Source of the DNA: an uncultured Prevotella sp.
Lineage (GTDB): Bacteria; Bacteroidota; Bacteroidia; Bacteroidales; Bacteroidaceae
NCBI GenBank assembly: GCA_900540375.1
Contig: UQFS01000014.1
Span: 17,863-81,862 of the forward strand
Reading direction: 5' to 3'
DNA length: 64,000 nucleotides
Within the stretch, counting starts at the first letter, position 1. The number at the start of each line of letters is the position of its first letter. The notes beneath the pieces were generated by a model. It searched no databases. It was not told the DNA's origin and saw nothing but the letters and a program-made list of their open reading frames with translations. The position numbers and the translations under genes are program-made. Shown here in pieces: positions 3,962 through 53,354 of the stretch.

Positions 3962-4036
3962 GCACTAGGCCCCCATCATGGGGACCACTGCTTTTGCTCT
4001 ATTAAGCCTCTGCTTTTCATTTCAAAATTTCTACCG

Positions 4037-32305: not shown

Positions 32306-32421
32306 GCGTATATATAAACTTCGGTTGTTGTGGTTTGGATAGGGTTTATTATGGTTTATTAGGGCTGATATTGTCACCCAAGTGTCACCGGAAAGTGTCA
32401 CCTAAAACTAAGTTATGCGAT

Positions 32422-34006: not shown

Positions 34007-34345
34007 TTATTCTTCTTCGGGCTCTTGTGAGAGCTTTAAGAGTTTGTCTTCGATAGTTACCTTTGTGTCGGGCATGTTGACATCGACGGAGGTGCTCTGC
34101 ATCTTCGGCGTGTGGAACTCCATGAGCTTTACTTCGATTTGTGCCCGTTCGGCGGCCTTCATCATTGCGAGGTCCATGTCGAGCTGTGAGAGCATAGAGT
34201 GTTCGCCGGTCTCTTCGTCGACGACATCATGTGGTGTGATGTAGGCAAGGGAGTGGTCGCGAAGAATAGCCTTGATAGCTTTCTTCTGCGGCGTGTCCTT
34301 GTTTGGCGTGCCCTTTGTGCGTCCACCTGTTTTCTTACCTTTCAT
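34007..34345 (-). CDS. Hypothetical protein with a basic N-terminus (possible DNA-binding, excisionase or regulator candidate)
   Basis: 112 aa. The N-terminus is lysine/arginine rich (MKGKKTGGRTKGTPNK) and the C-terminus is acidic. The gene is divergent from 34436 and sits between operator-like repeats. Confidence 0.35.
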   Translation of the reverse strand: MKGKKTGGRTKGTPNKDTPQKKAIKAILRDHSLAYITPHDVVDEETGEHSMLSQLDMDLAMMKAAERAQIEVKLMEFHTPKMQSTSVDVNMPDTKVTIEDKLLKLSQEPEEE

Positions 34346-34435: not shown

Positions 34436-34915
34436 ATGGGAATAGTAGGCTCAGCAGTAGGCGCAGCTGGTGCCGTTTTCGGCGGTATCAGCGCAAGCAA
34501 GGCGATCAAGAAGATGAAGCGCAACATCGAGGCTCAGCGCAAAAAGAACCAAGACTGGTACGACCAGCGGTATAACGAGGATGCCACACAGCGTGCTGAC
34601 GCTCAGCGTGTGCTCAGTCAGACGCAGGACATGCTGAAACGTCAGACAGACGCTGCGGCGGGCAGTGCTGCCGTTGGCGGTGGCACAGACGAGAGCGTGG
34701 CGCAGGCAAAGGCTCAGGCTAACGAGACTTTGGGCAATGTGATGAGCAACATCAACGCTCAGGCAGACGCACGCAAGGACGAGATAGAGCAGACCTATCA
34801 GGCTAACGACAATGCCTTTGTGGAGCAGCTGAACAACTTGGAGCAAAAAAAGGCTGAGAATATCAGTCAGGCTGTTCAAGGCGTTACTAATGCAGCGAGC
34901 AAAATGCCGTGGTGA
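34436..34915 (+). CDS. Hypothetical protein with a glycine-zipper N-terminal helix and a coiled-coil body
   Basis: 159 aa. The N-terminus is MGIVGSAVGAAGAVFGGISASKAI and the rest is Q/A-rich and predicted helical. Confidence 0.35.
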   Translation: MGIVGSAVGAAGAVFGGISASKAIKKMKRNIEAQRKKNQDWYDQRYNEDATQRADAQRVLSQTQDMLKRQTDAAAGSAAVGGGTDESVAQAKAQANETLGNVMSNINAQADARKDEIEQTYQANDNAFVEQLNNLEQKKAENISQAVQGVTNAASKMPW

Positions 34916-36470: not shown

Positions 36471-39400
36471 ATGCCATTAGATAAAGGTAAACTTCAAAAG
36501 TTGTACTCCACTCTCCAGCAGGGCGGATACTCACAGAGCTATGATGAGTTTGAGAAAGGCTTCACGGGTAATGACAACTACCCCAACAGAAAGAAGGTCT
36601 ATGACCTCCTGACCGAGCATGGAGCTAACATCGGTAAAACGTATGAGGACTTCATGGGTAAGATGCAGGCACCGCCTCAGCCTTCCCAGCCTCAGCATCA
36701 GAACACCCCGGCACCGGCTCCTAAGCCTCAGCCGAAGCCAAAGGGCGGCGGCATGACTGCGGCTGAGCGTGCGCAATTCATCCGGAATGCCCAAGGCATT
36801 GTGCATCAAAGTGCAGCCGGACTCCAACGCGCGAAAAACCAGATGGACTATGCCAACAGCAACCGTGGGTTGAAAGTGGACCCCGTGCATTTGGGCCAGA
36901 ACGCGAAGGTAGTCAGGCGACATGTTAACGGCACGGTGGCAAAACCGCGTCCCGTCTTCGATGTTGCTCCTGAACAGCAGCCGGGCGACACCTACTTGAC
37001 CGAGAGCGGCAATGAGTTTGCCAGCCGAGCCGAGGCAGACACCGAGCAGAATGCCGTTGACCAGTATCGCTATGACCAGAGCGAGACCGGGCAGTTGAAT
37101 AATGCCTATGCCGAAGCAGAGAGGCTTGACAAGCTCTTGGAACAGCATGGTAAGGAACTCGACGATGAGAATAGAGACAAATGGTGGCGAGATCTTCCCC
37201 GTGGCGGTGGCGGTGCTGTCAGTACGATGAACGCCAACGACAACAACGGTCGCATGACCGATACCGAATACCTCAATTTATTGGCAGCACGCAAGAAGGT
37301 TGACGAGCAGATTAGAGACCTGAAGGCGGCGCGAGACGAGAAGACAGGCACCTTCCTTGGCGGACTGTGGCGTGGCTTCCGCGACTATGCCTTTGACCCG
37401 TCGAACTGGGACAACGGCTATAGTGACTTGCTGACTACCTCAGCCATGCTCCGTGCAAAGACAGGAGCTGCACAGACACCGAGAGAGAAAGCTTCCGAGC
37501 GCATGATGATGGAGGATACCTACAAGGCAGGTGTTGCAGCTCAGCAGGCAGAAAAGGTGCTTGGCAATGGCTACCGCTTTATGAGGATATGCGCACAGTC
37601 GCTGCCATTCGCACTCCAGTTTATGGCAGGCAATGCAACCGGCATGATAGGCGGGCTGACAAGAGCCGGTGAGGGCATGGGCGTGAAGCTGGCCCGTAAG
37701 ATAGCCATCAAGCAGGGAGCCAACAACATGATGCGCAATATTGGTCGCAGCGTGTTGAAAAATACCGGCGTTGCGCTTGGTGACCTTGGAGCAGCCACTG
37801 CACTTTCAAATACTATTCAAGCAGCACAGACATGGGCTGACATAGGTCATAGATATGCTGGTGATGTTACCTACGACCCTAAAACCGGCGATTATAAGCT
37901 TGAAGGAGGCAAGAGCCTCGGACGTTCTATCTATGAAGGTGAAGCCAATTCTATCATTGAGAACTACACCGAGCAGCTTGGCGAGCACATGCACCTTGGC
38001 AAGTTTGCTTCTTCCGCATTAACGAAGATGGGACTTGGCAGAGTGAGCAACTGGTTTACCAAGGTCGGCAAGAGTGAGTTCATGCAGGGCGTGAACAAAT
38101 ACATGAAGATGGCTAGCTTCAATGGTTATCCGCAAGAAGTGATGGAGGAAGAGGTAGGCATACCCCTTCATGCCATCTTTGACGGTGGAAACAAGATGAG
38201 TGACTTGCTTGACGGCAGGCAGCAACTTGACATCGTAGGCGGCATGCTGTTCTCAATGGCAGGTATGGGCGGTGCGTCGATGGTGATGCAGGGCGGACAT
38301 AAGGCGGCAATGGCAGTCCAGTACCACCAAGACCAACACAAACTCGACAATGCCGATAAGGTAGCGTCGTTCAGGCTCACGGCAGACAAGTGGGCACCCA
38401 TCAAGGAAGAGATTGACGGTACTACCAATGAGGATTTCGGCAAGGTGATGAAGGATGTACTCAGCAATGACGAGCTATCCGACCAAGAGAAGCAAGCCGT
38501 GTGGGACTATGCCCAGCGGCTTGTCATCATGCGTGGGCATAACATGGGTCAGGAGGCTGCTACTCGCAACGGCATGACCGATAAGGAGACCAATGCAGCC
38601 AACGAGAGCTACACACAAGGCTACAACACCACCGACGCAACGGCGATGAACGATGCGAAGAACAGACTGGCAGCTGCTCAGCAGAAGTTCGATGAATATA
38701 TGGAGCAGACGGGCCGCGAGCGTTGGGAAGGTGAACCGAGTATGCAGGACATACAGCATCGTCACCGAGACGCACAGAGTCTATTGAATGACAAGTGGGC
38801 TGACGGCACTCCAGTATATAATGAAAACGACGAGGAATACAAGCTTGCTCAGGCTGTTGTCAATGCCCAGCAGGAGTATGAGGGCATGATGCAGCGTGTG
38901 AGGGACGATATAGACGACGAGGTTCAGCAGACAGGAGCCATCTATGACAGCCGTACGAATGACCAAGGCGTTATTCAGTCGGCGACGCTGAAGGCGCAGA
39001 ACCCGGACGGCACCGACAAGAAGGTGTATATCACCAGCGGCAATGTCGTAATGACCGACGACGGGAAGAGCGTTGACAATCAGAAGAGCGACATGAGTAT
39101 TGTCGTTGTCGATGAGGACGGCAAGGTTCAAATGATTTCTCCTGATGAACTATTCTCCCTTGACACGCCGATAGACGGTGCTCAGGCAAAACAGCAAGCC
39201 ATTGACGCTATCCAGCAGAGCAAGGCGCAGGAAGCCGCAGATAAGATAAACGGCAAGGTCAATCTTACCGCAGGCAACACCTATACCCTTACGGACAACA
39301 CCGGACAGCAGATAGAGGCTACCATCGTTGCTGACGGTCAGACAGGAGCCGTGCAGAACCCTGACGGCACCGTTAACGTGAGCATGAACGGAAAGGTTGT

Positions 39401-42400
39401 GGCCATGGACGTGAACACGTTGCAGCAGATGGTGGACAACACCAACATGCAGAGAACGGCACAAGGCGACGAAGAGGGCGGACAGGAGCAGCCAACAGAG
39501 CAGAAAGGCGACCAAGGCATATTGGACCAAGGCGGCAATGTCGTAGACCTCTCCAACATCGGCGAAAGCGAGGAAGGCGGCGGAACCGTCGTGCAAGGTG
39601 ATGAAGACAGCGGAGCAGTACCGACCTATCCGGGTGGTGTTGTGGCTCCTGATATGTCAGAGCCTCATCAGTGGCAAGTCGATGATACGTTTACCATCGA
39701 CAACGGCGGTATGCCCATACGTGGGCAGGTTACCGGTGTCGGCGAGGACGGTGTGGAGATATACACCGAGAGCCCGGTGAATGGTAAGAAGATGCAGGTT
39801 GTTAGCCCGGAAGAGCTGCAAAGCATGACGACCGAGATTAACGGGGAGACGGTGCAGGCTCCGCAAGATGAAGCCGCTGCAGAGCAGCGGCCTACGGAAC
39901 CCAGCCCTACCGAACAGAGTGGGGTCAATGGGGTGAATGGGGAGCAGGCGCAAGAGCAAGCACCTCAGACACAAGAGCAAGCACAGCCTCAGCAGGCTGA
40001 TGGAGAGCAACCCGCACGAGCCATTGACCGCATACCGTCGCAGCAGATTGATGATGGTAAGGGAAATGTGCGCACAGTGCATAGCTGGGAGCAGGCAGAG
40101 CCGGGAGATACCTATGACGCACTGACAGAGATATACCACGGCAATGCCGACCGTGTGAAGAAAGGCATAGACAACCGTGTCGGCAAGATTGACAAGGCTA
40201 TCAAGGGCGTGCATAAGCAGATGGACGCTATCGACAACAGCGACGACTTCGACGAGGTTGCCGCACAGAGCGAGCAGTACGACCAGCTCCAGCAGCAGAA
40301 AGACGAGTTGGAGAAGCAGAAGAAGTACTGGCAGGGTGTGCAGATGGTACCCCGCAATCGCAAGATGGACGCCGACCGTCGTAGTGCTGAGGAACAGGCA
40401 GCTGCCAAAGCCGCACAGGAGAAGGCGGAAGCCGAGGCCGCTGAGAAAGCCCGTCAGGAGCGTGAGCAGGTGAACGGCGTGCCAAATGTAGTCAATGATA
40501 TACCGGCAGACGCGCGGAAGCGTGGTTTCCGCAATGTGAACGGCATGGTGGTGAACCGACAGGGCGAGACGCAGGGCGTTAGCGGCAGGGAGAGCAATGT
40601 GAAGTTCTCTTCCACCGACACAGCCAAAGGCCACATCAAGGTTATTGATGCTGACGAGCTCCAGCCGTCACACGTCAGCGGACAGCGCAACCCGTCATTC
40701 TTCATCGACGAGGCACAGCCAAAGGACAGAACGGACACTGTATCCGGAATGGCAGCTGCTAAGATTGCAGCTGACCTCAACCCGGAAGAGATAACGGGCG
40801 ACGGCAGTGCCTACCAGTTCAGTGCCCCGACGGTGAACAGCCGTGGTGAGGTCATTCAGGGCAACAACCGCAGTGACGCATTGAAGCTTATGTACTCCAA
40901 TCCAGCCTTCAAACCGGCTCAGGACGCATACAAGCAGTATATCGCCGACCATGCCGAAGAGTTTGGCTTCACTCCTGAGGACGTAGCGAAGATACAGCAG
41001 ATGGAGCACCCGGTGATGGTGAACGAGCTTGACGTGCCTGATGATGAGGCTATCCGCTTAGGCCAGATGAGAGCGAGCGACAACGAAAGTGGCGGCATTG
41101 AGCGTATCGACCCTGTGACGACCTCACAGAAGCTTGACGGCAAGGTGAGCAGCTTTGCCAACGTGTTGCTGTCCTCACCCGACGAGGACGCAAGTCTGAG
41201 CGATGTGCTCATGCAGAACGGAGCCAAGGCAGTGAATTGGCTGGCAACACAGGGAGCTATCAGCGACACGGCTGCACAGAGTGCCTTTGACAAGAAAGGC
41301 AACCTCACGCCTGAGGCACGCATGGACTTGCAGAATATCTTGAAGCAGAGTTTGTTCCAAGGTGGTGTGAGCGACCTGCCCACGATGTTTGACAAGATGC
41401 CCGCCAAGGCGCAGAAAGCTATCCTCTCCACGTTCATGCGCGACTTCGACAGTGCTGAGAGCGAGCGGATATTGCCTGAGATACAGCGAGCCATTGAGGC
41501 ATGGTACGACTGTGCGATGAGCAATGAGGCGTTTGCCAAGGCTTCCAACTACAAAGGAGCCAAGAATGCCATGCACGACTGGGAGCGTCAGACAAACATG
41601 CTTGACGACAACATGCCGTCGGATAAATTCAGTAACTTTGCAAGAGAGCTGGCATGCCGTCTGCAAGGTTGCAGCATGCGCGAGACGCAACAGAGCCTCA
41701 ACGACTTCTTCGACCTTGTGCAGGGCAAGAGCCAAGGTGATTTGTTTGGCGGCACGACAATGGGCGAGCAGGCAGACAGACAAGAGTCTATCCGCCGTAT
41801 TTTCAATATCGAATATAAACCAATAAGCAATGGAAAGACAAGAAGCAATGCTGTGGCTGACAACAGTAGCCAGAGCGGAGAAGGGCGACAAGGAAGCCCA
41901 ACAGATGGTAAGGGACGCGAACGAGCTGAGAGCGGAAGCGGGTCAGCCAACGGTGCAGGAGGAACTGAGAGCCATGATGAGGAAGGCATAAAGGCTACCC
42001 ATGTTGATACCTACGGTCATGGCTCCCGTACAATATATAAAAACCTTAAGACTGGAAAGGTAACTGTAATCTTCGGCGAAGGTGACAAGGCGAACCGTAA
42101 TGGTGGAAAATATAATGTGAGAACCGCTGCGGAGCAGCAACCTACAGAACCGAGCGGGGATAGTAGCCATAGAAACGATAGTAGCCATAGTATAGGATCG
42201 ACTTCTTCATCTGAGAAGAAGGAGACAGAGCGGCAAGGCGTGAACACTGAGCCTACTGAGAAGCAGAAAGAGGCCGGTAACTATAAGAAGGGACATATCA
42301 AGGTTGACGGCTACGACATCACCATTGAGAACCCTAAGGGCAGTACCCGGAGCGACAAGGACGCGTCGGGGAAGGCTTGGAGTGTGCCTATGCACTATGA

Positions 42401-45400
42401 CTACGGCTATATCAAGGGTACTGAGGGCGTTGACGGCGACCATATCGACGTGTACCTGTCAGACAACCCTACGAGCGGCAATGTGTATGTCATTGACCAG
42501 ATAGACCAGAAGACCGGCAAGTTTGACGAGCATAAGGTGATGTACGGTTTTCCATCCAAGGAAGCTGCTGTTGAGGCTTACAAGGGACAGTACGAGAAAG
42601 GCTGGAAAGTTGGCACGGTTACTGAGGTGAGCCGCGAGGACTTCAAGAAGTGGGTGGAGAGCAGCAAACGGAAGACCAAGCCGTTCGGCGAGTATAAGAG
42701 CGTGAAGGAGGCCGCTGTGGAGCGGCAGCCTACACAACCGAGCGCATCAACCGAGCGTACAGAGCAGAAGCAAAAGCGTACTACCACTAAGGGAAAGACG
42801 GAAAAGAACTTTGTCATTGAAATTCAGAACGCCATCGAGGACGATGCAGCCTACGGAAAGTACGACCACAAGCTTACGATGAGCGACATCAAGAAAATGG
42901 CTCAGAAGTATGACTTGCTGAAAGACTACAAGGACACCGACATGCAGGAGCTTGTGGAGAGAGCAATGACACTTGCCACAAGGCAGGTTGCTCAGGCTGA
43001 CATCAATAAGGACGAGCAGACAAAAAAGGCTGGTTTTGACGAGGTTGTAAGACTGTATCAGTCTCAGCCGAGCCTGAACGCGAGAGACACCAGCCGTGTT
43101 GCTCATCAGCAATACTCAACACCTACCCCATTCGGCTATGTGATGGATATGTTCATGATGGGTGGCGATAAGAAGCCGTTGAAGCTGTTGGAGCCGAGCG
43201 CAGGCAACGGAGCGTTGACGATAGGCATCCCGGCACCGCTGTGGCATGTGAACGACATCGACGAGCGCAGACTTATGAACCTCCGTACCATGCCCTACGG
43301 TCGGATAACCAATCAGGACGGCACCATGCCGTTTGAGCCCAAGGCATACGACGCAGTGGCTACCAACCCACCATTCGGCAGTACGCAGGAGAAGGAGTTT
43401 GACGGCGGCAGGACGAAGATAACCAGTCTGGAGGGGCTTATGGCTATTAATGCTCTTGCCTCCATGAAGGACGACGGGCGTGCCGCCATCATCATCGGCG
43501 GCAACACCCAGTATATGAGCAATGGTGCTATGCAGGCCAAGGATATGAAACTGTTCAAGCACCTGTACACCCATTACAACGTCGTTGACGTTATCAACCT
43601 TGACGGCGACATGTACAAGCGCAACGGAACCGGTTACAATGTGCGCATGATACTCATTGCCGGACGCAAGACCGACGTAGGCGACAATCCTGAGAAGTTC
43701 ACCTTCCCACCGGTGAAGAAGAAGGCGCGAGCCGAGCAAGTAAAGACATTCGACGAATTATATAAACGAGTAGAAGATGACATTCAACAAGCTAAGCAAA
43801 TGGAGCGTGAGCCTTCCGCTGCTGTCAACAGTGACGGAAGTCAGCCAGTCAACAGTACGTCAGAGCGTACTGGCAATAGTGAGGCAGCAGGTGGAGTTCA
43901 GCAACAACCCGTACGAGCAGGCGAGATGGAGCGACGTCCACAACCCGGACGGAGTGTACGACCTTCCTCAGCCCAAGACGGACGAGGAAATGGAGAACGA
44001 GGCCAACATGGAAGCGCTGACCGACTGGATAATGCAGACGGACGAGATGCAGGAAGCAATAACACTGTTCAGGGGAACAGACCCACACAAGGGCAATCCT
44101 CAGAACGGCGAGAAGTCGGAAGCACTGGACGAGGAACAGTCGGAGGAAATCAGCGTGGAGGAACTTCTGAACGGAATAACACCACTGGAGAGCGACCCGC
44201 GATAACCAAAAATGCTGAGGCACAGCCTCAGCGTACAGAACCGCGCGCACCACAAGCACCCCGTCAGAAGGTAGAGTTAGGACAGGAGAAAGTAGCCTAT
44301 CCTAACAAGAGCCAGAGCATGACACTTCAAAGCCGTGTGCCAGCCGCACAGGCTGAGGCTATTGCCGAGAACCTTGACAAGCTTGGCGATGTTGACGAGA
44401 TGGTACGCTCAGAGCTTGGCTACAGCAGCAAGGACGAACTGTACTCTCATCTTGCCGCCGAGCAGATAGACAGTGTGGCACTTGCCATCAATCAGATGAA
44501 GCATGGCAAGGGCTTCATTATCGGCGATATGACCGGTGTAGGCAAAGGCAGACAGGGTGCAGCCCTTATCCGCTGGGCTATCAAGCAAGGCAAGACCCCT
44601 ATCTACTTCACTCAGAAGGCACGTCTGTACACGGACAACTACCGTGATATGTGCGATATAGGCAGCAATGGTTTACGTCCGTTCCTTATTGCCTCAAATG
44701 ATGATGGCAATATCGTTGAGAACGTTGTCGATGAGAACGGCAAGAAAGTCTATGACAAGAATGGCGAGCCCGTTACCCGTGTCGTTTACGGACTTCCCAA
44801 GCCCAAGGAGCGTGAGCGTGTCTATGACTACATACTCCAGAACGGCAAGCTGCCACCTGAGTATGACTATGTGCTTGTCACCTACTCTCAGATACAGTCC
44901 GGCACCAAGACCTATGAGATAGGCAAGAATGGTGAAATAGAAGTTAAGGACAAGAAATACAAGGGCAAGACACCCGGTGCTGACAAGAATGGTGATATTC
45001 GCCGTGATGTGCTGGAGACGCTTGCCAAGGACAACTATGTCTTCTTGGACGAGAGCCATACCGTAGGCAGTCAGTCGTCGAGTGGTTTGTACATGCAAGA
45101 CTTGCTCAAAGGTGCAGAGGGAGTAACATATCTTAGTGCCACCTTTGCCAAGCGTCCCGATAACATGCCCCTGTATGCCATGAAGACAGCCATGAGCGAG
45201 AGCGGTCTGAGCCAAAAGGATATGATTGACGCTATCCAGAATGGCGGTGTAACATTGCAGGAAATTATGTCCAAGCAGCTTGTTCAGAGCGGTCAGATGA
45301 TTAGACGTGAGCGTGATTTCACCGGCGTAAGCATTGACTGGGAAGGCGTGGACGAAGAGACCGACAAGCAGCAGCGTGCCCAGTTTGACGAGGTTGCCAA

Positions 45401-48400
45401 GATATACAATGCCATCCGTGAGTTCCAAGACAACTATGTAGACCCGTCTATCGAGAAGATGAGCGAGGACATGGCCGAGGAAGGCATGTTCAGCAAGAAG
45501 ACCCAAGGCACCAGCCACATGGGTGTGAACAATGTCCCCTTTGCCAGCAAGATGTACAATCTTGTCAATCAGCTGTTGTTCTCACTGAAGGCCAATGCCG
45601 TAGCCGATAAAGCCATAGAGTGCTTGAAGAAAGGCGAGAAGCCCGTTATCAGTTTCAACAACACGATGGAAGGCTTCTTGGACGACATGCCGAGGAACAC
45701 CCCAATGCCGGAGCTTCCAAACTTCTCCTTGACTCTGATGAGAGCTTTGGAGGGCACGCTTCGTTATACCGAGGGCGAGGTAGGCAATAAGGACAATCAG
45801 GTCAACAAGACCCTCAACATCAACGACCTTGGCGATGAAGCCGTTGCCAAGTACAACGAGATACGCAAGACCATTCTCAACCTGAGCATAGGCTTGCCCA
45901 TTGACCCTATGGACGCTATCAAGATGCGGATTGAGGCAGCAGGTTACAAGGTAGGTGAGATTACCGGCCGCAAGTCAGAGATGGTGATGGACGCCGAGGG
46001 CAACTATATCGTTCAGAGCCGCAGCAGCAAGGAGATGGACGGCAAGGCCGCCGCCTCTGCCTTCAACAGTGCCAGCGGCAAGAATGGCGGTTTGGACGTA
46101 CTGCTTATCAATAAGAGCGGCAGCACCGGCATCAGCCTCCATGCGAGCAGCAAGTTCAGCGACCAAAGTCCTCGTGTGATGATAGCCGCGCAGTTCCAGA
46201 GCGACATCAACGACGAGGTACAGATGCGCGGCCGTATAGACCGTACCGGGCAGGTTCATCGTGGCAGGTACATCTACTTAGTGAGTTCCATCCCGGCAGA
46301 GCAGCGTTTGCAGATGATGTTCAAGAACAAACTGAAATCGCTTGACGCAAACACCACCTCTTCGCAGAAGTCGAAGTTCAACGAAATGGAAGTTACCGAC
46401 TTCATGAATAAGTACGGCGATGAAGTAACATGGTCGTATATGATGGAGCACCCCGACTTGGAAGATCGCCTTGGCGACCCACTCGACATGCTTTCTGATG
46501 AGAGCAAGAAGAGCAACCGCCGTGGCGGTGATGAAGAGAACAATCCAAACTCAGGTTGTGCCGGAAAGATACTCCGTCGTCTGCCATTCCTCAGCGTTAA
46601 GGAGCAGGAGCAAATCTTCAATGACCTTGCCGACGCATACAAGGTGAAGATGCAGATACTTAACGACGCAGGAGAGAACGACCTTGAAATTACCACCATG
46701 CCACTGAGAGCCGAGACCAAATCAAGGAAGGTTTGGAAACAAGGCTCAGACCCCGGCAGTGATAATGCCTTTGCCGACAATACATATCTGGAGACGGCAG
46801 AAGTGGACGTGCTGAAAAAGCCTATGAAGGCTAAGGAGGCGCGTGAGTATGCCGACCGCCTGACCGACGGCAAACCGTGGGAGCAGTGGCACGAAGAGCA
46901 GCATGAAGCCGTAGAGAAGTTCTATGCAGACAAGGCAAAAGCCGTTGAGGATAAGGCGAAAGCCGAGGCACAGAAGCGCATTAACAAAGCCCGTGAGGAC
47001 TATATCAAAGGTTGCCTGAAAGCCCGTAAGAAAGGTGACAACAACTGGAGTGACGAAGAGATAAGCCACATGGCAGATATTGCCGCAAAGGAAGCCGCCG
47101 ACAAGGAGCAGACGAAGATTAACAAGCGTACCGTGAGCATAGACGCACAGCGCAACGACGTATTGGGAGCATTGGACGCCTTCACTCCTTTGGAACCGTT
47201 AATCATCCCTCTGAACTTAAAGGACACGAGCACGACCGTTATTCCGAGCCTTGGCACCTTCCTTGGTATCAAGTTCGGCAAAGGTTATTCCCGTTCATCC
47301 TCAACGGCAGTGTTTGCCACCCTTGACGGACGCAGAAAGATTGAAGTGCCCCTTAGCGATAAGACAAGCCTTGAAAACATCAAGCACCAAAGCGTGATGT
47401 TGGGTTATCAGGCCCGTGGCCTCAGCATGGACAACTGGGATAGCAAGGTACCAACAAAGAGCCGCAAGACCGCATACATCGTAACCGGTAACTTGATGCA
47501 GGCACTTGTAGATACTCAGAAATCTCCGGAGACCAAAGGTCAGCTTATCAGCTATACGACCATTGACGGTGATGTCAAGCAAGGTATTCTGATGAATGAC
47601 CGCTTCAAAGAAGAGGACTTAAAGACCAGCGTTCCCATCAGTGCCATGCTGCAAAAGATTATCGACGGCGACGCCGTTGAGAGTGCTGACAAAGAAGTCA
47701 AGATAGAGCGTGGCATGTCGTACCACTATAACGACTTCAAGCTGAGCGTCCCCAAATCGAAGTCTCGTGGCGGCAAGTACTTCTTGGATAAGAAACTTCT
47801 GAGGCTACTCGATGACGAGTTCACCACCAGCGGCAGCAACATGACCGCTTGGGTCAGCCAGCAGAACCTTAAGAAAGTACTTGACTATCTGAGCAAGACC
47901 CTTGGCGTTACCGTACAGGTGAAAGCCAACCTTGAAGAGACAGCGGACAGTCCACATAATGACGAACCTGGCACCCCATCAGAGGCTGAGGAAGGTGGCG
48001 TGCTGTACAGAGAAGTTGACGACGAAGAGGCAGCGAGACTTGACAGCGAGCCGACGGTTAAGGTGTACCGAGCCATGCAGGAGCACGACGGTAAGCTCTA
48101 TCCACCGATGAGTGGCAGGGTGAAGACACAGGTTGAGACAAAGAAAGGCACCCTGCGCACGAAGTGGGTATGGCGTAGTCCTATAGAGATTGGCAAGTGG
48201 GAGCAGAGCGAGGAATACCCAGAGATGGCTAATGAAGACGGAACCTTTACCCTTGACAAGGGCAACGGCAGCACCATCAACGCAGCCTACAATCCGTATA
48301 TCCACACTTCACGCACCCCCATCAACGACCAGTTCTCATCAGCATGGAACAGACCAAAACTTGTTACCGTAGAGGTGGAAGTCCCGGTTAGCGAGCTTAC

Positions 48401-51400
48401 GAGCGGTTATCATGCTGAGAAGGCAAAGGACTCGACGGGCGAGGTAGAATGGAAGTCCGGTCCCGTCGGCAGAGAGATGGCGGCACAGGGCAATCCTCGA
48501 ATGGTTATTTTGAGCCGTTGGGATAAGCCTGTACGCATTGTACCTGTAGATGAAGTTGCCGATGAGTATGCCGTCAGGCTGGCAGGGACGGGGATAAAGG
48601 TACCGTTCAACACCGTGCCACCTGCACTTAGAGACGCGCTTGTTGCAAGAGGCGTTGAGATTAGCGAGCCTGAGGAAGGCAATGCAGGAAAGGCGAGCCG
48701 TCCGAGCTATGAAGAGTGGCTGAAAGGCAATACCCGTCGTCGTGAGGGCAGTGGAGCCTATAGCGATGAAGAATTATCGCTGATGAACGACCCTGTAGCG
48801 AAATGGCTTGGCAAGAGCAACCGCACCAAGGCACAGCAGAAAGCCTTTGCCAACAGAGAGCGCAAGAGCATGGAGAGTGCCGCAAAGGAGCTGGCTGATA
48901 GGCTTCACCTTGACAACGTGAATATCGTGATGGACGCATCCACGCTGGAGGGCAGAAAGGCACGTGCCAAAGGTTTCTATGACCGCAACACGAATGAGAT
49001 AACCATCGTTATTCCTAACCACCGTGATATTGACGACGTGATGCAGACCTTGCTCCATGAAGGCGTGGCGCACTACGGACTGAGGAAGATGTTCGGCAGC
49101 CACTTCGACATGTTCCTTGACAACGTGTATGCAGCCGCCGACAACGATGTGCGCAGGCGGATCACGGAGTTGGCACTGAGCAAGTACGGTGGCGACTTCC
49201 GTGTGGCTACTGAGGAATATCTTGCAAGCCTTGCAGAGCAGACCGACTTCGAGCACATACCCGAGACCTTCTGGCAGAAGATAAAGGACTTTTTCCTTGA
49301 TATGCTTCATGCCATTGGCTTTGCGGACTTTGCCGATAAGTATGACTTTACCCTGTCGGACAACGAGCTGAGGTATATCCTTTGGCGTAGCTATGAGAAC
49401 CTGAAGGAGCCGGGACGGTACCGCAGCATCTTAGGTGAGGCTGAGGACGTGGCAAAGCAGGCAGAGCTACAAGTTGGTAACTATGCACCTGAAAGCCTTG
49501 ACAGCAGTGATAACCGTGTAGCAGAGGCAAGTCCAAAGCTATCATCTGTAAAAAATGAGTTCGGCAAGCCATTTGTACTTTCTTCAAAGGGAAGTATAGA
49601 CATGGGATTTATTGATAAGGCTTCAGGTCTTAAAGAGGCTCCTATCAGACTTAGCGAAGGTGAAGATATTGTTGACGAAGATGGAAAGCACCATGGATAT
49701 GGGCTTCTGCATATTGCAGCAGAGCATGAAGGAGAAATACGCAATGCCAGCTATAACTCTGTCGAAGAGTTTGTTGAAGACGTAGCCAGCAATTACAACA
49801 CAATCCGTGAGGGCAATGTTGTTGCTAATAACCAAACCTACCTTGTTGAATTGACAGACAAGCACAACAATACATTGTATGTCGAACTTTCAAGAGACGG
49901 GAAGTACTGGAATATAAATAGCGCAGGAGTATTCCGTAAAGGCTATTCAAAGAATAAAAAGGAAGTCTACTCCCGACCCGCAATCGGTAGCAGTTCCGGC
50001 ACTCGAACTGCTGGAGTTAATCACGGCGTTAATAATAGTGCCACCGTCACCAGCGGGAACTCTCCTTTGACTTCCAATGCAAAGATAGGGAATAATTCCG
50101 AAAGAGGTGTCAATAATTCCGAAAATGTTTCGGAACCGAAGTCATGGGGCAAGCAAGACCTTATGAGCAAGGCAGAGCAGATAAGTAATGGCATTGAGCC
50201 GGATTTACTGTTCAGAGACACTATAGAAGATGATGATAACACGGCAAGGGAGACTTACGACCGATGGGCAGACCAAGCAAAGGAGCAGTTTCGTGAGGCT
50301 TGGCAAGACTCCATGATTAACGTCAGGAACCTGCAGGAGGCAGTATTGAAACAGCGTGGCGAGAAGTTAGAGCCATACGAGGATGCATACAACGAGGAAA
50401 ACCGCAGCCACGGCATAGGACAGGATAAGAGTGAGTATTTCACTGACAACCTCTATAAGCCGTTGATTGCATCTGTGAACGAAGCAGCCAAAAAGGCGAA
50501 GGTAAGCATTGGCGATGTTACAACGTATATGATGGCTAAGCACGGACTGGAGCGAAACGAAGCATTCGCAAAGAGAGACGCTGACGCAGCATGGACCAAG
50601 TACCAAGAGAAGCAGAAAGCGAAGTTCGACGAATACCAGAAGGCGCACCCCAACGGCAAGCAGACTCTAGCTGATTTCATAAAGAAGAGCTATGACGACT
50701 TCTACAATGATTATCGTGAGAAGGACTATAGCGGACTGACCTCACTCACCGATACCGACAATGTGCAGGACGCTGAGGCAGAAGCACAGCGCATCATAGC
50801 CGATATGGAGAGGAAAACCGACACCAAAGACATATGGGATAAAGTGAACGCTGCAACAAAGTGGACGCTGCATCAGGCTCACGAGAGCGGTATCATCAGC
50901 AGGGACAACTACCAGAGCGTGAAAGATATGTTCAAATACTACATTCCTCTGCGTGGTTGGAACGAGGACACGGCTGGGGACATCTATGACTATGTTGGCA
51001 GTGCCAAGGGAACGGCGTTCTCACCGACACTCGCCAAAGCAAAAGGGCGAAAAAGCCAGGCTGACAATCCTATTGCCTATATAGGCAGCATGGGAATAAG
51101 CGCAATCATACAGGGTGAGAGAAACAGGGTGAAGCAAGCCTTCATGCGGTTTGCAGAGAACCACCCGACAAACCTTGTAATGGTGAGTGAGATGTGGTAC
51201 AGGAACTTCGGCACAGACACCGCCCCCGATTGGCGTGAGGACGTGCCGAACATTCCCGAGAACACATCAGCCGACCAAGTGGCAGCCATTGTGGAGCAGC
51301 ACGAAAAGGACATGAAGGCTTTGGAGGCACAAGGGCTTGCTACCAAGAGACGTGGCAGGCTTCACCTTGGCGTGCCAATAAAGCCGAAAGAGGCTACAGA

Positions 51401-53354
51401 GCACCACGTAGAGGTGATGCTCAACGGAAAGAAATATGTACTCTATATCAACGGCAACCCCCGTGCAGCACAGGCACTTAACGGCACGAGGGCAAAGAGG
51501 GCACAAGAACACAGCACCACTGCAAAGCTTGATGATATAGCCAAGAACTTTGAGGATATGCACAACTGGATTGGAAGAAGGCTTGCATCCCTTACACGAA
51601 TGCTTGCCCATGGCCAAAGATGGATGGGCGCACGCTTCACCAGCAAGAACCCGGCGTTCATTCTCAGTAATGCTATGCGAGACGTGGATATGGCACTTGC
51701 CTCTACCGCCATAAAGGAAAGCCCGATGTACGCCTTGCGTTTCCGCCTGAACTTAGCAAGACTTGTGGGACCGGTGCGCATGCTTGGATTGAAGCACTGG
51801 TATGAGAACTACCGTGCAGCAGGCGGCAATAGTGCAGGACTGACAGGCTTGAAGAAATACTTCTATGAGTTCAATGCTGGTGGCGCACGTACAGGCTTCA
51901 CGTCGCTAAAGGATATCAAAGATTACAAGAAAGAAATTGAGAAGATGGTCAAGCAGTCGCAACAGTCGGTTGTCAATCCAAGACGATGGCTTCGTGTACT
52001 TGGCGATGGTTTCGAGTTTGCCAACAGCGCTGTTGAAGACATGACACGTTTCGCTACGTTCATGGCTTCAAGGCAAAGCGGACGCACAGTGAGGGAAAGC
52101 GTAACAGACGCAAAGAACATCACGCTGAACTTCAACCGAAAGGGCAGCGGAGAAATGGGCAACGCCACAATCAGGGAGATGCAGATATTCGTCAACCCTG
52201 CCATTCAATCATTGCAAACGATAGCCAGTCTGGCTACGCACCACCCTGTCAAATTCTCTGCTTACACAGCATTGAGAGTCTTGATAGGTATCGGTACGCC
52301 TTTCGCTACGTCACTCCTTTGGAGCATCTTCGGTGGTGGTAACGGTGATGATGACGACTGGAACGCAGAGGATGAATACTGGAAGCTGCCTACATGGACA
52401 CGCCGTTCTAACTTCGTGTGCTGGATACCGGGGACTCACAAATTTCTGATGATACCACTGGCTCAGGAGTTCCGTGTCATGAACGGCTTTGGCGAGACAA
52501 TTGCAAGTGCCATGACAGGTAACAGCGACGAGAACCCTGCATTGGAGATGTTAAGTCAGACATCAGGTCTGCTTCCTATAGACTTCACAGGTAACGGCAA
52601 CAATCCGTTTATCACCCTTTCGCCGACCATCATACAACCGCTGATGCAGATTCGCTTCAATACAGATTTCACTGGCAGACCAATATACAAGGACAGCGAG
52701 TGGAACAAATACGAGCCGGCATCGCAGAAGGCATATATCGGCACTCCGGGCGAGCTTGTAGACTGGTCGGCTAAGATAAACAATCATACGGGCGGTAACG
52801 AGCACAAGCAAGGCTGGTGGGAGCGGACGCTTGCTGGCAAGTATGCCAACAACCCTGCCATTGTTGACCATTTTCTGAAGGGCTATTACGGAGGATTATA
52901 CTCGTTCATTGCGCAGCTCGGAGGTCTCGCCTTCCATGCTTACAACGGTGAGTCTCCGGACGTGCAGGAAATACCAATGGCAAACCGCCTAGTCACTGCG
53001 CCTAGGGAAAAGTTGCAGAACGGCAAGATGAAGATGCCTGTCTGGTATTATGATATGCTGGACGACAACAAGCGCTACATGGACGAGGTGAACGGCTACC
53101 GCAAGGACATGCTTGCCAATAAGCCGGGAGCCGAGAAGCACTTCATGGAAATGACCAAGACGGACGAGTTCATGAAGCAGCAACAGGTCAATGCGCTGAT
53201 GAACGGTATCAACCAGATACGAGCGGCAATGCCTACCGTGGAAAATTCTCAAAATGACGAGGACGCCAAGACCAAGCAAGAGCTTGAGGGCGGTATAAAG
53301 GAGATACTCTCAGAACTTGAAAAGATAAGGAAAACGGGTAAGCCGTTGGAGTAA
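36471..53354 (+). CDS. Giant polyvalent protein (5,627 aa) with ParB-like, pyrophosphatase-like, N6-adenine methyltransferase, SNF2-family helicase and HExxH zincin modules
   Basis: One uninterrupted 16,884-nt ORF. It contains ParB-like ...VIQGNNRSDAL, PPase-like YGYIKGTEGVDGDHIDV, MTase LLEPSAGNGALT ... VATNPPFG, helicase GDMTGVGKGRQ / LDESHTV / LSATF / GSTGISLHA / QMRGRIDRTGQ, and zincin LLHEGVAHYG. Only short antisense ORFs overlap it. Confidence 0.85.
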   Translation: MPLDKGKLQKLYSTLQQGGYSQSYDEFEKGFTGNDNYPNRKKVYDLLTEHGANIGKTYEDFMGKMQAPPQPSQPQHQNTPAPAPKPQPKPKGGGMTAAERAQFIRNAQGIVHQSAAGLQRAKNQMDYANSNRGLKVDPVHLGQNAKVVRRHVNGTVAKPRPVFDVAPEQQPGDTYLTESGNEFASRAEADTEQNAVDQYRYDQSETGQLNNAYAEAERLDKLLEQHGKELDDENRDKWWRDLPRGGGGAVSTMNANDNNGRMTDTEYLNLLAARKKVDEQIRDLKAARDEKTGTFLGGLWRGFRDYAFDPSNWDNGYSDLLTTSAMLRAKTGAAQTPREKASERMMMEDTYKAGVAAQQAEKVLGNGYRFMRICAQSLPFALQFMAGNATGMIGGLTRAGEGMGVKLARKIAIKQGANNMMRNIGRSVLKNTGVALGDLGAATALSNTIQAAQTWADIGHRYAGDVTYDPKTGDYKLEGGKSLGRSIYEGEANSIIENYTEQLGEHMHLGKFASSALTKMGLGRVSNWFTKVGKSEFMQGVNKYMKMASFNGYPQEVMEEEVGIPLHAIFDGGNKMSDLLDGRQQLDIVGGMLFSMAGMGGASMVMQGGHKAAMAVQYHQDQHKLDNADKVASFRLTADKWAPIKEEIDGTTNEDFGKVMKDVLSNDELSDQEKQAVWDYAQRLVIMRGHNMGQEAATRNGMTDKETNAANESYTQGYNTTDATAMNDAKNRLAAAQQKFDEYMEQTGRERWEGEPSMQDIQHRHRDAQSLLNDKWADGTPVYNENDEEYKLAQAVVNAQQEYEGMMQRVRDDIDDEVQQTGAIYDSRTNDQGVIQSATLKAQNPDGTDKKVYITSGNVVMTDDGKSVDNQKSDMSIVVVDEDGKVQMISPDELFSLDTPIDGAQAKQQAIDAIQQSKAQEAADKINGKVNLTAGNTYTLTDNTGQQIEATIVADGQTGAVQNPDGTVNVSMNGKVVAMDVNTLQQMVDNTNMQRTAQGDEEGGQEQPTEQKGDQGILDQGGNVVDLSNIGESEEGGGTVVQGDEDSGAVPTYPGGVVAPDMSEPHQWQVDDTFTIDNGGMPIRGQVTGVGEDGVEIYTESPVNGKKMQVVSPEELQSMTTEINGETVQAPQDEAAAEQRPTEPSPTEQSGVNGVNGEQAQEQAPQTQEQAQPQQADGEQPARAIDRIPSQQIDDGKGNVRTVHSWEQAEPGDTYDALTEIYHGNADRVKKGIDNRVGKIDKAIKGVHKQMDAIDNSDDFDEVAAQSEQYDQLQQQKDELEKQKKYWQGVQMVPRNRKMDADRRSAEEQAAAKAAQEKAEAEAAEKARQEREQVNGVPNVVNDIPADARKRGFRNVNGMVVNRQGETQGVSGRESNVKFSSTDTAKGHIKVIDADELQPSHVSGQRNPSFFIDEAQPKDRTDTVSGMAAAKIAADLNPEEITGDGSAYQFSAPTVNSRGEVIQGNNRSDALKLMYSNPAFKPAQDAYKQYIADHAEEFGFTPEDVAKIQQMEHPVMVNELDVPDDEAIRLGQMRASDNESGGIERIDPVTTSQKLDGKVSSFANVLLSSPDEDASLSDVLMQNGAKAVNWLATQGAISDTAAQSAFDKKGNLTPEARMDLQNILKQSLFQGGVSDLPTMFDKMPAKAQKAILSTFMRDFDSAESERILPEIQRAIEAWYDCAMSNEAFAKASNYKGAKNAMHDWERQTNMLDDNMPSDKFSNFARELACRLQGCSMRETQQSLNDFFDLVQGKSQGDLFGGTTMGEQADRQESIRRIFNIEYKPISNGKTRSNAVADNSSQSGEGRQGSPTDGKGRERAESGSGSANGAGGTESHDEEGIKATHVDTYGHGSRTIYKNLKTGKVTVIFGEGDKANRNGGKYNVRTAAEQQPTEPSGDSSHRNDSSHSIGSTSSSEKKETERQGVNTEPTEKQKEAGNYKKGHIKVDGYDITIENPKGSTRSDKDASGKAWSVPMHYDYGYIKGTEGVDGDHIDVYLSDNPTSGNVYVIDQIDQKTGKFDEHKVMYGFPSKEAAVEAYKGQYEKGWKVGTVTEVSREDFKKWVESSKRKTKPFGEYKSVKEAAVERQPTQPSASTERTEQKQKRTTTKGKTEKNFVIEIQNAIEDDAAYGKYDHKLTMSDIKKMAQKYDLLKDYKDTDMQELVERAMTLATRQVAQADINKDEQTKKAGFDEVVRLYQSQPSLNARDTSRVAHQQYSTPTPFGYVMDMFMMGGDKKPLKLLEPSAGNGALTIGIPAPLWHVNDIDERRLMNLRTMPYGRITNQDGTMPFEPKAYDAVATNPPFGSTQEKEFDGGRTKITSLEGLMAINALASMKDDGRAAIIIGGNTQYMSNGAMQAKDMKLFKHLYTHYNVVDVINLDGDMYKRNGTGYNVRMILIAGRKTDVGDNPEKFTFPPVKKKARAEQVKTFDELYKRVEDDIQQAKQMEREPSAAVNSDGSQPVNSTSERTGNSEAAGGVQQQPVRAGEMERRPQPGRSVRPSSAQDGRGNGERGQHGSADRLDNADGRDAGSNNTVQGNRPTQGQSSERREVGSTGRGTVGGNQRGGTSERNNTTGERPAITKNAEAQPQRTEPRAPQAPRQKVELGQEKVAYPNKSQSMTLQSRVPAAQAEAIAENLDKLGDVDEMVRSELGYSSKDELYSHLAAEQIDSVALAINQMKHGKGFIIGDMTGVGKGRQGAALIRWAIKQGKTPIYFTQKARLYTDNYRDMCDIGSNGLRPFLIASNDDGNIVENVVDENGKKVYDKNGEPVTRVVYGLPKPKERERVYDYILQNGKLPPEYDYVLVTYSQIQSGTKTYEIGKNGEIEVKDKKYKGKTPGADKNGDIRRDVLETLAKDNYVFLDESHTVGSQSSSGLYMQDLLKGAEGVTYLSATFAKRPDNMPLYAMKTAMSESGLSQKDMIDAIQNGGVTLQEIMSKQLVQSGQMIRRERDFTGVSIDWEGVDEETDKQQRAQFDEVAKIYNAIREFQDNYVDPSIEKMSEDMAEEGMFSKKTQGTSHMGVNNVPFASKMYNLVNQLLFSLKANAVADKAIECLKKGEKPVISFNNTMEGFLDDMPRNTPMPELPNFSLTLMRALEGTLRYTEGEVGNKDNQVNKTLNINDLGDEAVAKYNEIRKTILNLSIGLPIDPMDAIKMRIEAAGYKVGEITGRKSEMVMDAEGNYIVQSRSSKEMDGKAAASAFNSASGKNGGLDVLLINKSGSTGISLHASSKFSDQSPRVMIAAQFQSDINDEVQMRGRIDRTGQVHRGRYIYLVSSIPAEQRLQMMFKNKLKSLDANTTSSQKSKFNEMEVTDFMNKYGDEVTWSYMMEHPDLEDRLGDPLDMLSDESKKSNRRGGDEENNPNSGCAGKILRRLPFLSVKEQEQIFNDLADAYKVKMQILNDAGENDLEITTMPLRAETKSRKVWKQGSDPGSDNAFADNTYLETAEVDVLKKPMKAKEAREYADRLTDGKPWEQWHEEQHEAVEKFYADKAKAVEDKAKAEAQKRINKAREDYIKGCLKARKKGDNNWSDEEISHMADIAAKEAADKEQTKINKRTVSIDAQRNDVLGALDAFTPLEPLIIPLNLKDTSTTVIPSLGTFLGIKFGKGYSRSSSTAVFATLDGRRKIEVPLSDKTSLENIKHQSVMLGYQARGLSMDNWDSKVPTKSRKTAYIVTGNLMQALVDTQKSPETKGQLISYTTIDGDVKQGILMNDRFKEEDLKTSVPISAMLQKIIDGDAVESADKEVKIERGMSYHYNDFKLSVPKSKSRGGKYFLDKKLLRLLDDEFTTSGSNMTAWVSQQNLKKVLDYLSKTLGVTVQVKANLEETADSPHNDEPGTPSEAEEGGVLYREVDDEEAARLDSEPTVKVYRAMQEHDGKLYPPMSGRVKTQVETKKGTLRTKWVWRSPIEIGKWEQSEEYPEMANEDGTFTLDKGNGSTINAAYNPYIHTSRTPINDQFSSAWNRPKLVTVEVEVPVSELTSGYHAEKAKDSTGEVEWKSGPVGREMAAQGNPRMVILSRWDKPVRIVPVDEVADEYAVRLAGTGIKVPFNTVPPALRDALVARGVEISEPEEGNAGKASRPSYEEWLKGNTRRREGSGAYSDEELSLMNDPVAKWLGKSNRTKAQQKAFANRERKSMESAAKELADRLHLDNVNIVMDASTLEGRKARAKGFYDRNTNEITIVIPNHRDIDDVMQTLLHEGVAHYGLRKMFGSHFDMFLDNVYAAADNDVRRRITELALSKYGGDFRVATEEYLASLAEQTDFEHIPETFWQKIKDFFLDMLHAIGFADFADKYDFTLSDNELRYILWRSYENLKEPGRYRSILGEAEDVAKQAELQVGNYAPESLDSSDNRVAEASPKLSSVKNEFGKPFVLSSKGSIDMGFIDKASGLKEAPIRLSEGEDIVDEDGKHHGYGLLHIAAEHEGEIRNASYNSVEEFVEDVASNYNTIREGNVVANNQTYLVELTDKHNNTLYVELSRDGKYWNINSAGVFRKGYSKNKKEVYSRPAIGSSSGTRTAGVNHGVNNSATVTSGNSPLTSNAKIGNNSERGVNNSENVSEPKSWGKQDLMSKAEQISNGIEPDLLFRDTIEDDDNTARETYDRWADQAKEQFREAWQDSMINVRNLQEAVLKQRGEKLEPYEDAYNEENRSHGIGQDKSEYFTDNLYKPLIASVNEAAKKAKVSIGDVTTYMMAKHGLERNEAFAKRDADAAWTKYQEKQKAKFDEYQKAHPNGKQTLADFIKKSYDDFYNDYREKDYSGLTSLTDTDNVQDAEAEAQRIIADMERKTDTKDIWDKVNAATKWTLHQAHESGIISRDNYQSVKDMFKYYIPLRGWNEDTAGDIYDYVGSAKGTAFSPTLAKAKGRKSQADNPIAYIGSMGISAIIQGERNRVKQAFMRFAENHPTNLVMVSEMWYRNFGTDTAPDWREDVPNIPENTSADQVAAIVEQHEKDMKALEAQGLATKRRGRLHLGVPIKPKEATEHHVEVMLNGKKYVLYINGNPRAAQALNGTRAKRAQEHSTTAKLDDIAKNFEDMHNWIGRRLASLTRMLAHGQRWMGARFTSKNPAFILSNAMRDVDMALASTAIKESPMYALRFRLNLARLVGPVRMLGLKHWYENYRAAGGNSAGLTGLKKYFYEFNAGGARTGFTSLKDIKDYKKEIEKMVKQSQQSVVNPRRWLRVLGDGFEFANSAVEDMTRFATFMASRQSGRTVRESVTDAKNITLNFNRKGSGEMGNATIREMQIFVNPAIQSLQTIASLATHHPVKFSAYTALRVLIGIGTPFATSLLWSIFGGGNGDDDDWNAEDEYWKLPTWTRRSNFVCWIPGTHKFLMIPLAQEFRVMNGFGETIASAMTGNSDENPALEMLSQTSGLLPIDFTGNGNNPFITLSPTIIQPLMQIRFNTDFTGRPIYKDSEWNKYEPASQKAYIGTPGELVDWSAKINNHTGGNEHKQGWWERTLAGKYANNPAIVDHFLKGYYGGLYSFIAQLGGLAFHAYNGESPDVQEIPMANRLVTAPREKLQNGKMKMPVWYYDMLDDNKRYMDEVNGYRKDMLANKPGAEKHFMEMTKTDEFMKQQQVNALMNGINQIRAAMPTVENSQNDEDAKTKQELEGGIKEILSELEKIRKTGKPLE

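Follow-up and report, generated by a model that had tools for sequence, protein, structure and literature searches.

The polyvalent proteins described by Iyer, Burroughs, Anand, de Souza and Aravind in 2017 (PMC5512222) carry at least two biochemically unrelated enzymatic or effector domains in one uninterrupted open reading frame (ORF), encoded among the late or virion genes of phages or prophages that package DNA with a portal and a terminase. The pairing of a methyltransferase with a helicase, which that study calls the methylase-helicase dyad, has DarB of phage P1 as its archetype; both packaging and antirestriction are cited there for DarB. Strawberry-notch (Sno) helicases were placed in the SWI2/SNF2 clade in the same work (PMC5512222). 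Three domains, the polyvalent-type inorganic pyrophosphatase (InPase), DdrB-ParB and LPD38 (one of the large polyvalent protein-associated domains, LPDs), have been reported as phage-only. One further protein, gp47 of the Stx phage phi24B (ADN68472.1, 2,807 amino acids (aa)), has been detected in virions by proteomics and is absent from the shell seen with cryo-electron microscopy (cryo-EM; 2026 preprint). A cryo-EM preprint on a Xanthomonas phage makes no mention of a giant protein. Here we analyse a related gene of 5,627 codons, hereafter the giant gene, in a 64,000-nucleotide (nt) stretch of DNA from an uncultured Prevotella sp. (GenBank assembly GCA_900540375.1, contig UQFS01000014.1, positions 17,863 to 81,862; hereafter the window).

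We think it likely that the giant gene encodes a phage polyvalent protein that probably doubles as an internal (ejection) protein in the virions of a temperate podovirus in gut Prevotellaceae. Packaging and injection is the best-supported mode of action because the C-terminal module of the protein (C-module, aa 4565–5507) is homologous to the virion protein gp47. The C-module matches aa 1868–2698 of phi24B vb_24B_48 (BLASTP E 5.5e-31), which is gp47 by domain content: it has the LPD5, LPD1, MuF_C and LPD38 domains reported for gp47. This is the sole relative we encountered that has experimental virion evidence. Both are polyvalent proteins of temperate podoviruses, they share a homologous C-terminal ~830–940 aa that includes LPD38, and their genes adjoin the integrase gene across the attachment site. 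By contrast, gp47 is about half the size of the giant protein. It has LPD5, LPD1 and MuF_C, and lacks the ParB, InPase, methyltransferase and helicase domains and the N-terminal core (N-core, aa ~330–1000) of the Bacteroidales proteins. Gene order points the same way. The giant gene lies between a gp14-like gene and the portal gene, a synteny that is kept in cultured phages, and with portal and capsid genes downstream and an integrase upstream it sits among late or virion genes in the sense of Iyer et al.

The gene is real. The initial annotation described a single 16.9 kb gene, and we find one ATG-to-stop ORF on the plus strand with no internal stop, both in the ORF listing and by translation. 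The probability of 5,627 codons without a stop at this base composition is ~1e-123, and the predicted mass of the product is ~625 kDa. The terminal 8,319 nt of the gene are present in three independent human-gut metagenome assemblies with 0–1 nt differences, and the C-terminal 2,772 residues are unchanged across the three. Because these assemblies agree, the frame is no artefact of sequencing or assembly. All three also carry the portal protein of the prophage, which occurs in at least that many independent gut metagenomes.

Exceptional length, together with one relative that comes in two pieces, could be taken as a sign of fused neighbouring genes or of a decaying pseudogene in a defective prophage. 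Given three concordant assemblies, cultured propagating phages with intact genes of 5,553 and 5,391 aa, an ORF that stays open through the entire 10 kb fetched upstream in 51 of 55 IMG/VR loci, and a two-piece relative that is explained by a 7.8-kb mobile-element insertion, we regard such an origin as extremely improbable. Nor is the gene at the extreme of the size range, as had been supposed. Exhaustive searching with the last 1,064 aa as the query gave 5,774 representative clusters and returned intact relatives of 3,000–7,236 aa; 50 of the best 150 representatives have at least 5,000 aa and 23 are longer than 5,627 aa, the longest having 7,236 aa. A polyvalent protein of 12,242 aa is cited by Iyer et al. 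2017 (PMC5512222). We also considered whether the relatives are split into several genes, and rejected this: hits ending at 1,365 aa are fragments, and intact giants exist.

The protein combines unrelated enzymes with phage-restricted domains in one chain. Pfam scans of the whole protein and of smaller pieces, with matches judged against the gathering cutoffs, bear out four of the five modules that had been called from the sequence (ParB-like, pyrophosphatase, gamma-class N6-adenine methyltransferase and SNF2-type helicase); the fifth, the HExxH zincin, is borne out by its motif and a structural match, and the catalytic motifs of all five are intact. InPase retains its acidic motif DGDHID at aa 1988–1993. 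The methyltransferase is of the gamma class by its motif order, with motif I (EPSAGNG, aa 2241–2247) before motif IV (NPPF, aa 2299–2302) and no intervening target-recognition domain, and by a match to PF02384 that passes the cutoff narrowly, when scanned as a small piece. The helicase is a Strawberry-notch-like SF2 ATPase in which PF13872 AAA_34 (E 2e-19, 70.1 bits against a cutoff of 27) is paired with PF13871 Helicase_C_4 (E 5.4e-24, 85.8 bits against 30.5); Walker A (aa 2688–2694), DESH (2860–2863) and motif VI (3251–3261) are all intact. The zincin, which we call module B, has HExxH at aa 4196–4201 and an invariant ATEEYLA at 4246–4252; the fold is that of zincins, the HExxH lies on a helix, and a third ligand follows downstream. 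LPD families were included in the scans, and LPD38 was found at aa 5300–5503 (E 1.9e-28), so that InPase, DdrB-ParB and LPD38 all score above their Pfam cutoffs. The hub domains of the Iyer class (MPTase, dyad, DdrB-ParB, InPase and LPDs) are present; nothing categorical separates the giant protein from that class, although its exact domain set is rare. An NCBIfam search of the giant protein gave no useful match, and single-sequence and profile searches of PDB sequences with modules A, B and C (A and C are described below) and the methyltransferase-helicase block gave none.

Sequence comparison shows a protein whose ends form a conserved scaffold around a middle that varies and is a putative cargo region. 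We counted modules in the 123 relatives of at least 3,000 aa among the best 150 of the 5,774 clusters (hereafter large relatives). The N-core is found in 87 (aa 330–700) and 65 (aa 700–1000) of them with its N-terminal position kept, and the C-module stands at or near the protein C-terminus in all the matches listed; 333 phage records match the C-terminal query. Zincin (103/123) and InPase (79/123) are widespread. ParB (18), module A (14), methyltransferase (11), the PBECR1-like stretch (10) and the Sno helicase (8, a count equalled by the post-helicase region) occur in far fewer, and the identical full set recurs in one other cluster (P0195, 6,030 aa). The same region of metagenomic relatives holds Kinase-PolyVal, ART-PolyVal, PBECR2/3/5, MuF_C and LPD1/3/5/13/23. 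The termini had been set down as low-complexity or unassigned stretches. They are not filler, because the N-core and C-module are kept across the large relatives: aa ~330–1000 and 4565–5507 form the family scaffold. We propose that the N-core is a packaging or ejection anchor; its match to LPD14 is weak (E 2e-3) and below cutoff. Among species-representative genomes, at least 175 stretches, nearly all from Bacteroidales, contain the family's zincin module, the best match being 68% identical; IMG/VR has 381 such stretches. PHROG 14770 spans the giant protein from the methyltransferase through the C-terminus, and the InPase region matches PHROGs annotated, among others, as 'virion structural protein', 'minor head protein' or 'DarB-like antirestriction'.

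Cultured temperate Bacteroides phages display the same pattern. BKO1-TP3 gp55 (XPO94969.1; 5,553 aa, annotated 'DarB-like antirestriction') and BS-TP4 gp3 (XPO95421.1; 5,391 aa) are syntenic with the giant gene, in a slot common to both phages and the window: integrase, small genes, a 159-aa gene, a ~400-aa gene, the giant gene, portal. Residues 1–2079 (N-core, ParB and InPase) are collinear with both at 35% identity, and the C-module is 33% identical to both. A third such phage, BF1-TP2, shares aa 4592–5546 with the other two, though only aa 4751–5615 align well there, and its InPase stretch is 62% identical to ours. The zincin, the best-conserved module of the family, is common to all three (aa 4090–4357, 45–63% identity; 57–63% with BKO1-TP3 and BS-TP4).

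The middle differs from phage to phage. Of the three, only BS-TP4 has the methyltransferase-helicase block (aa 2136–3816), collinear with gp3 at 38% identity. Where the giant protein has its Sno block, BKO1-TP3 carries a SNF2-rel_dom/Helicase_C block of the classical type and BF1-TP2 carries ART-PolyVal and PBECR5, and aa ~3817–4090 and ~4358–4591 (module A and the PBECR1-like stretch) are in none of them. The hosts also differ, being Prevotellaceae for the window and Bacteroidaceae for BKO1-TP3 and BS-TP4, and megablast of the giant gene against phage records gave no DNA-level match. The giant gene is not new, as close homologues are already deposited and the concept dates from 2017 (PMC5512222). 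What is added here is the pattern of conserved ends and variable middle and two candidate effectors; the combination of domains is uncommon, and one module is possibly unclassified.

Conservation of the ends could also be read structurally. The protein might be mainly an ejectosome or conduit spanning the Bacteroidales envelope, an analogue of T7 gp16 or P22 gp16/gp20, with the enzymes as accessory passengers. The parts conserved in the family are the two ends and not the enzymes; there are hydrophobic segments at aa 588–606 and 5270–5288; the gp14-like gene and a second conserved gene stand upstream, in a rising size order that recalls T7 gp14-15-16; and gp47 is proposed by the phi24B authors to act as a transperiplasmic conduit. 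Yet InPase (79/123) and zincin (103/123) are widely kept too, and intact catalytic motifs in every enzymatic module argue for selection on activity. Pfam scans revealed no lytic transglycosylase or known ejection-protein domain, and a PDB search of both ends revealed no sequence similarity to solved ejection proteins. A conduit is compatible with a packaged polyvalent protein; as an account that makes the enzymes secondary we consider it unlikely.

How might a packaged polyvalent protein of this kind work? We infer its packaging, its self-processing and every enzymatic target named in the following scheme. The giant protein would be expressed late, together with the 159-aa gp14-like and 479-aa proteins encoded upstream and the portal downstream. 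It would be loaded into the capsid through the N-core and the C-module with its LPD38, and expelled with the DNA through portal and tail at infection, when the hydrophobic segments may help to form a trans-envelope conduit. Once inside the host, the polyprotein may be cleaved into its separate units by the HExxH zincin. The methyltransferase and the Strawberry-notch translocase could then track the incoming DNA and methylate adenines, protecting it in cis from restriction as P1 DarB does. During takeover, the other modules (ParB-like nuclease/NTPase, pyrophosphatase, ART-like module, PBECR1-like nuclease) may target nucleic acids, nucleotide signals or proteins of the host.

The proposed antirestriction role invites comparison with DarB. 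In P1 DarB as in the giant protein, a single phage polypeptide joins an N6-adenine methyltransferase of EcoKI/TaqI type to an SF2 helicase on its C-terminal side (here aa 2289–2446, then aa 2660–3408), which is the order of the DarB family. They differ in that the dyad makes up only ~30% of the giant protein, which is far larger than P1 DarB, and in that the helicase is of the Strawberry-notch subtype. PHROG 10089 'DarB-like antirestriction' has its matches outside the dyad, in the InPase region and the C-terminal region. For the zincin, the best structural match is ArdC of plasmid R388 (PDB 6SNA). We found no similarity between ArdC and the giant protein at the sequence level, and no Pfam scan of the giant protein gave the ArdC-N domain, which binds single-stranded DNA. 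ArdC travels by conjugation, whereas the giant protein is proposed to travel in the virion. The label 'DarB/ArdC-like' in the initial annotation holds for the architecture and the fold only; it does not extend to retrieval of P1 DarB by tblastn, to ArdC-N or to LPD36. LPD36 was not seen in Pfam scans of aa 2101–2450 (E up to 1) or of larger pieces, though a divergent version is possible. The antirestriction role is drawn from architecture, because P1 DarB was not retrieved and LPD36 was not detected.

Several points weigh against a packaged phage polyvalent protein. P1 DarB is absent from the tblastn matches of aa 2136–3816 in 50,697 phage records, which returned BS-TP4 and one Acinetobacter phage. 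The methyltransferase-Sno cassette (42876–47918, aa 2136–3816) occurs in 3 of those 50,697 phage records as compared with 444 plasmid records. Homology to gp47 is limited to the C-terminal ~940 aa at 21% identity, and the role of gp47 as an encapsidated ejection protein or transperiplasmic conduit is a proposal made by the authors of the preprint. A 625-kDa chain would need to be packed, and threaded through the portal. PDB sequence searches gave no solved-structure relative for either the N-core or the C-module; the match of the 159-aa protein to PF24072 T7_gp14 (E 1.4e-5, 25.5 bits) falls under the cutoff of 27; and the paper that reports the isolation of BKO1-TP3 and BS-TP4 is silent on the giant gene. 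A cryo-EM preprint on a Xanthomonas phage makes no mention of a giant protein.

The plasmid records raise another candidate, an ArdC/TraC-like protein of a conjugative element delivered by a type IV secretion system. Of the 444 plasmid records with the cassette, 162 are predicted to be conjugative, and the plasmid relatives are annotated 'strawberry notch'; the cassette is mostly on plasmids and the zincin resembles ArdC most closely. The window, on the other hand, has no relaxase, coupling protein or type IV secretion gene. Genes for an integrase, a portal, a capsid protein and a homologue of tailspikes lie around the giant gene, and the giant protein has the phage-only domains InPase, DdrB-ParB and LPD38 and no ArdC-N. 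We rate conjugative delivery as hardly credible. The distribution of the cassette suggests that it moves between conjugative elements and phage polyvalent genes.

Its parts also recall defence systems. A methyltransferase, an SF2 helicase and ParB-like and BECR-like nucleases are reminiscent of type I/III restriction–modification (R-M), DISARM and BREX-like components, and one could picture an unpackaged, R-M-like system expressed in the lysogen to exclude phages or plasmids; that the cassette is common on plasmids would fit. PADLOC returned two weak generic type I methyltransferase matches and no system-specific protein or defence-system signature. The gene stands between virion genes of the same strand and not in a moron or lysogeny module, and the homologue of its C-terminus is a virion protein. 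A lysogenic defence role is accordingly very unlikely in our judgement, and we retain the packaged polyvalent protein as the preferred explanation.

The unassigned parts of the protein had been expected to hide further effector domains. This expectation is borne out in part, by a weak ADP-ribosyltransferase (ART)-like fold in module A and by a PBECR1-like stretch, module C, whose match lies below the Pfam cutoff. Module A is tentatively an effector with an ART-like fold, as judged from its predicted model, although a Foldseek search with that model gave no support for the fold. Its invariant residues are Y3866-R3867, H3945/S3947 and E3968-x-E3970. Module A matched no Pfam family, no solved structure by sequence and none of the Pfam families of Iyer et al. 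2017. We rejected its assignment to Pfam ART-PolyVal: there is no Pfam match, and hhalign covers only a 15-residue junction motif, partly because the extracted segments overlapped. For module C, the homologue in one relative sits elsewhere, upstream of InPase, and such a changed position is the behaviour expected of a shuffled cassette.

The junction motif (approximately D-[IV]-[RL]-[FY]-[RS]-x-V-x-D) lies at 47991–48030 (aa ~3840–3853). It precedes module A in nearly all of 23 aligned relatives, and elsewhere it follows ART-PolyVal domains. BF1-TP2 has it three times at module boundaries, where shuffling gives an expectation of ~0.3. The AlphaFold2 model shows it as the first beta strand of module A. 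A [DE]-x-[IVL]-[RL]-[FY]-[RS] linker was considered as a processing site and rejected, since the giant protein has one convincing copy and this is the same first strand in the model.

A broader idea, which we hold only tentatively, is that of a modular delivery chassis: each Bacteroidales giant would itself be the ejectosome, its N-core and LPD38-bearing C-module seeing to capsid loading and envelope crossing. The exchangeable cargo between these ends would be released by the zincin and would, in the protein studied here, include a hitherto unclassified NAD-using ART-like family (module A) and the methyltransferase-Sno cassette borrowed from conjugative plasmids.

The human gut commonly harbours phages of this kind; their relative BS-TP4 was present in 31% of viromes from healthy donors according to its isolation paper. 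About a quarter of the phage genome is spent on this one gene, which is uncharacterised in Bacteroidales phages. If injected, the protein would offer a ready set of enzymes for counter-defence and takeover in Bacteroidales, in which restriction barriers limit both genetic work and the use of phages. Moreover, the swapping of effectors between fixed ends suggests a natural route for protein delivery by phage.

Table 1. Coordinates of features in the 64,000-nt window; aa positions refer to the giant protein.
Feature	Position (nt)	Strand	Remarks
TamB and nqrA-F operon	nqr ends 32239		chromosome left of prophage
Tyrosine integrase	32335..33561	+	Phage_integrase, Phage_int_SAM_5, Arm-DNA-bind_5; Bacteroidota-type; left prophage end beside nqrF
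112-aa lysine-rich ORF	34007-34345	-	between integrase and 159-aa gene; no PHROG match
159-aa protein	34436..34915	+	N-terminal glycine-zipper hydrophobic segment; first of three-gene block ending with giant gene
479-aa low-complexity coiled-coil protein	35009..36448	+	22-nt gap before giant gene; candidate co-ejected protein
Giant polyvalent protein gene	36471..53354	+	5,627 aa
N-terminal core, aa ~330-1000	37458..39470	+	hydrophobic Gly/Met-rich segment aa 588-606
DdrB-like ParB, aa 1384-1519	40620..41027	+	PF18763, E 1.2e-21, 77.5 bits against cutoff 27.6; GNNR aa 1464-1467
InPase, aa 1930-2063	42258..42659	+	polyvalent-type inorganic pyrophosphatase; PF18823, E 4.8e-55, full-length 1-135/135
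N6-adenine DNA methyltransferase	43068..43808	+	PF02384 N6_Mtase aa 2289-2446, 22.9 bits against cutoff 20.4
Strawberry-notch-type SF2 (SWI2/SNF2-clade) helicase/translocase, aa 2660-3408	44448..46694	+	AAA_34 and Helicase_C_4
Post-helicase region, aa 3409-3816	46695..47918	+	accompanies methyltransferase-helicase cassette
Module A, aa 3826-4095	47946..48755	+	ADP-ribosyltransferase-like fold (tentative)
Module B, HExxH zincin metallopeptidase, aa 4088-4360	48732..49550	+	H4196, E4197, H4201
Module C, PBECR1-like stretch, aa 4401-4475	49671..49895	+	PF18809 PBECR1, E 6.5e-4, 20.6 bits, below cutoff 27.6
C-terminal module, aa 4565-5507	50163..52991	+	LPD38 aa 5300-5503; hydrophobic segment aa 5270-5288
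NYN-domain protein (predicted RNase)	54152-54856	+	PHROG 5783; weak PADLOC HEC-09 match
P22-like portal	55035..57089	+	PF16510, E 3.1e-39
704-aa gene	downstream of portal	opposite	tailspike in relatives
SU10-like major capsid protein	61093-62607		downstream of 704-aa gene
207-aa ORF	63401-64000		runs off window end

The window is the left half of a podovirus-like prophage (Table 1). The prophage setting that had been assigned to the gene stands on the left side, where nqrF is followed by the integrase, with portal and capsid genes downstream; the right end lies beyond the window. No terminase was seen inside the 64 kb. The integrase gene begins 96 nt past the nqrF stop codon, and the attachment site is probably in the 3' flank of nqrF. 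The host is placed in the Prevotellaceae because the exact-sequence clusters of NqrF and NqrA hold proteins of Leyella, Segatella, Hallella and Prevotella. In BF1-TP2, a DUF5681 protein occupies the slot equivalent to that of the 112-aa lysine-rich ORF.

The 159-aa protein is 66% identical to BKO1-TP3 gp57 at the same position, and the 479-aa protein is 39% identical to the same-position BKO1-TP3 gp56 and BS-TP4 gp2. The 479-aa protein is also in GenBank as DAV17392.1 ('Caudoviricetes sp.', from a virome) and is found on 34 contigs. Pfam and PHROG scans of the three-gene block gave no gp15 or gp16 match for the 479-aa or the giant gene. Scans for sigma-70 promoters and terminators around the giant gene gave counts close to the shuffle expectation, with a consensus that is unsuited to Bacteroidota promoters. 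Giant gene and portal gene are separated here by the NYN-domain gene, at a position where BKO1-TP3 and BS-TP4 have none.

To the right, a matching metagenome contig (L004) continues past the window. Its next gene begins ~29 nt beyond the window end; its homologues are gp44 of BKO1-TP3 and gp14 of BS-TP4, and the product is another large protein, of ~2,600 aa. In BS-TP4 this protein is a diversity-generating retroelement target according to the isolation paper.

The two-piece relative belongs to a related prophage (L009, 10001–25202; ENA ERZ24911475 NODE_143; also L010) integrated beside a pyruvate phosphate dikinase gene instead of nqrF. Before it was split, its giant gene would have encoded at least 6,561 aa; it is now in pieces of 1,733 and 4,828 aa separated by ~7.8 kb of inserted DNA. 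On this insertion are genes for a class A beta-lactamase (Beta-lactamase2), a relaxase (Mob_Pre), Toprim_2, DUF5906 and a tyrosine integrase of its own, and it resembles a mobilisable resistance element that has landed within the polyvalent gene of a phage. A second sample shows the N-terminal half joined to the beta-lactamase by the same junction.

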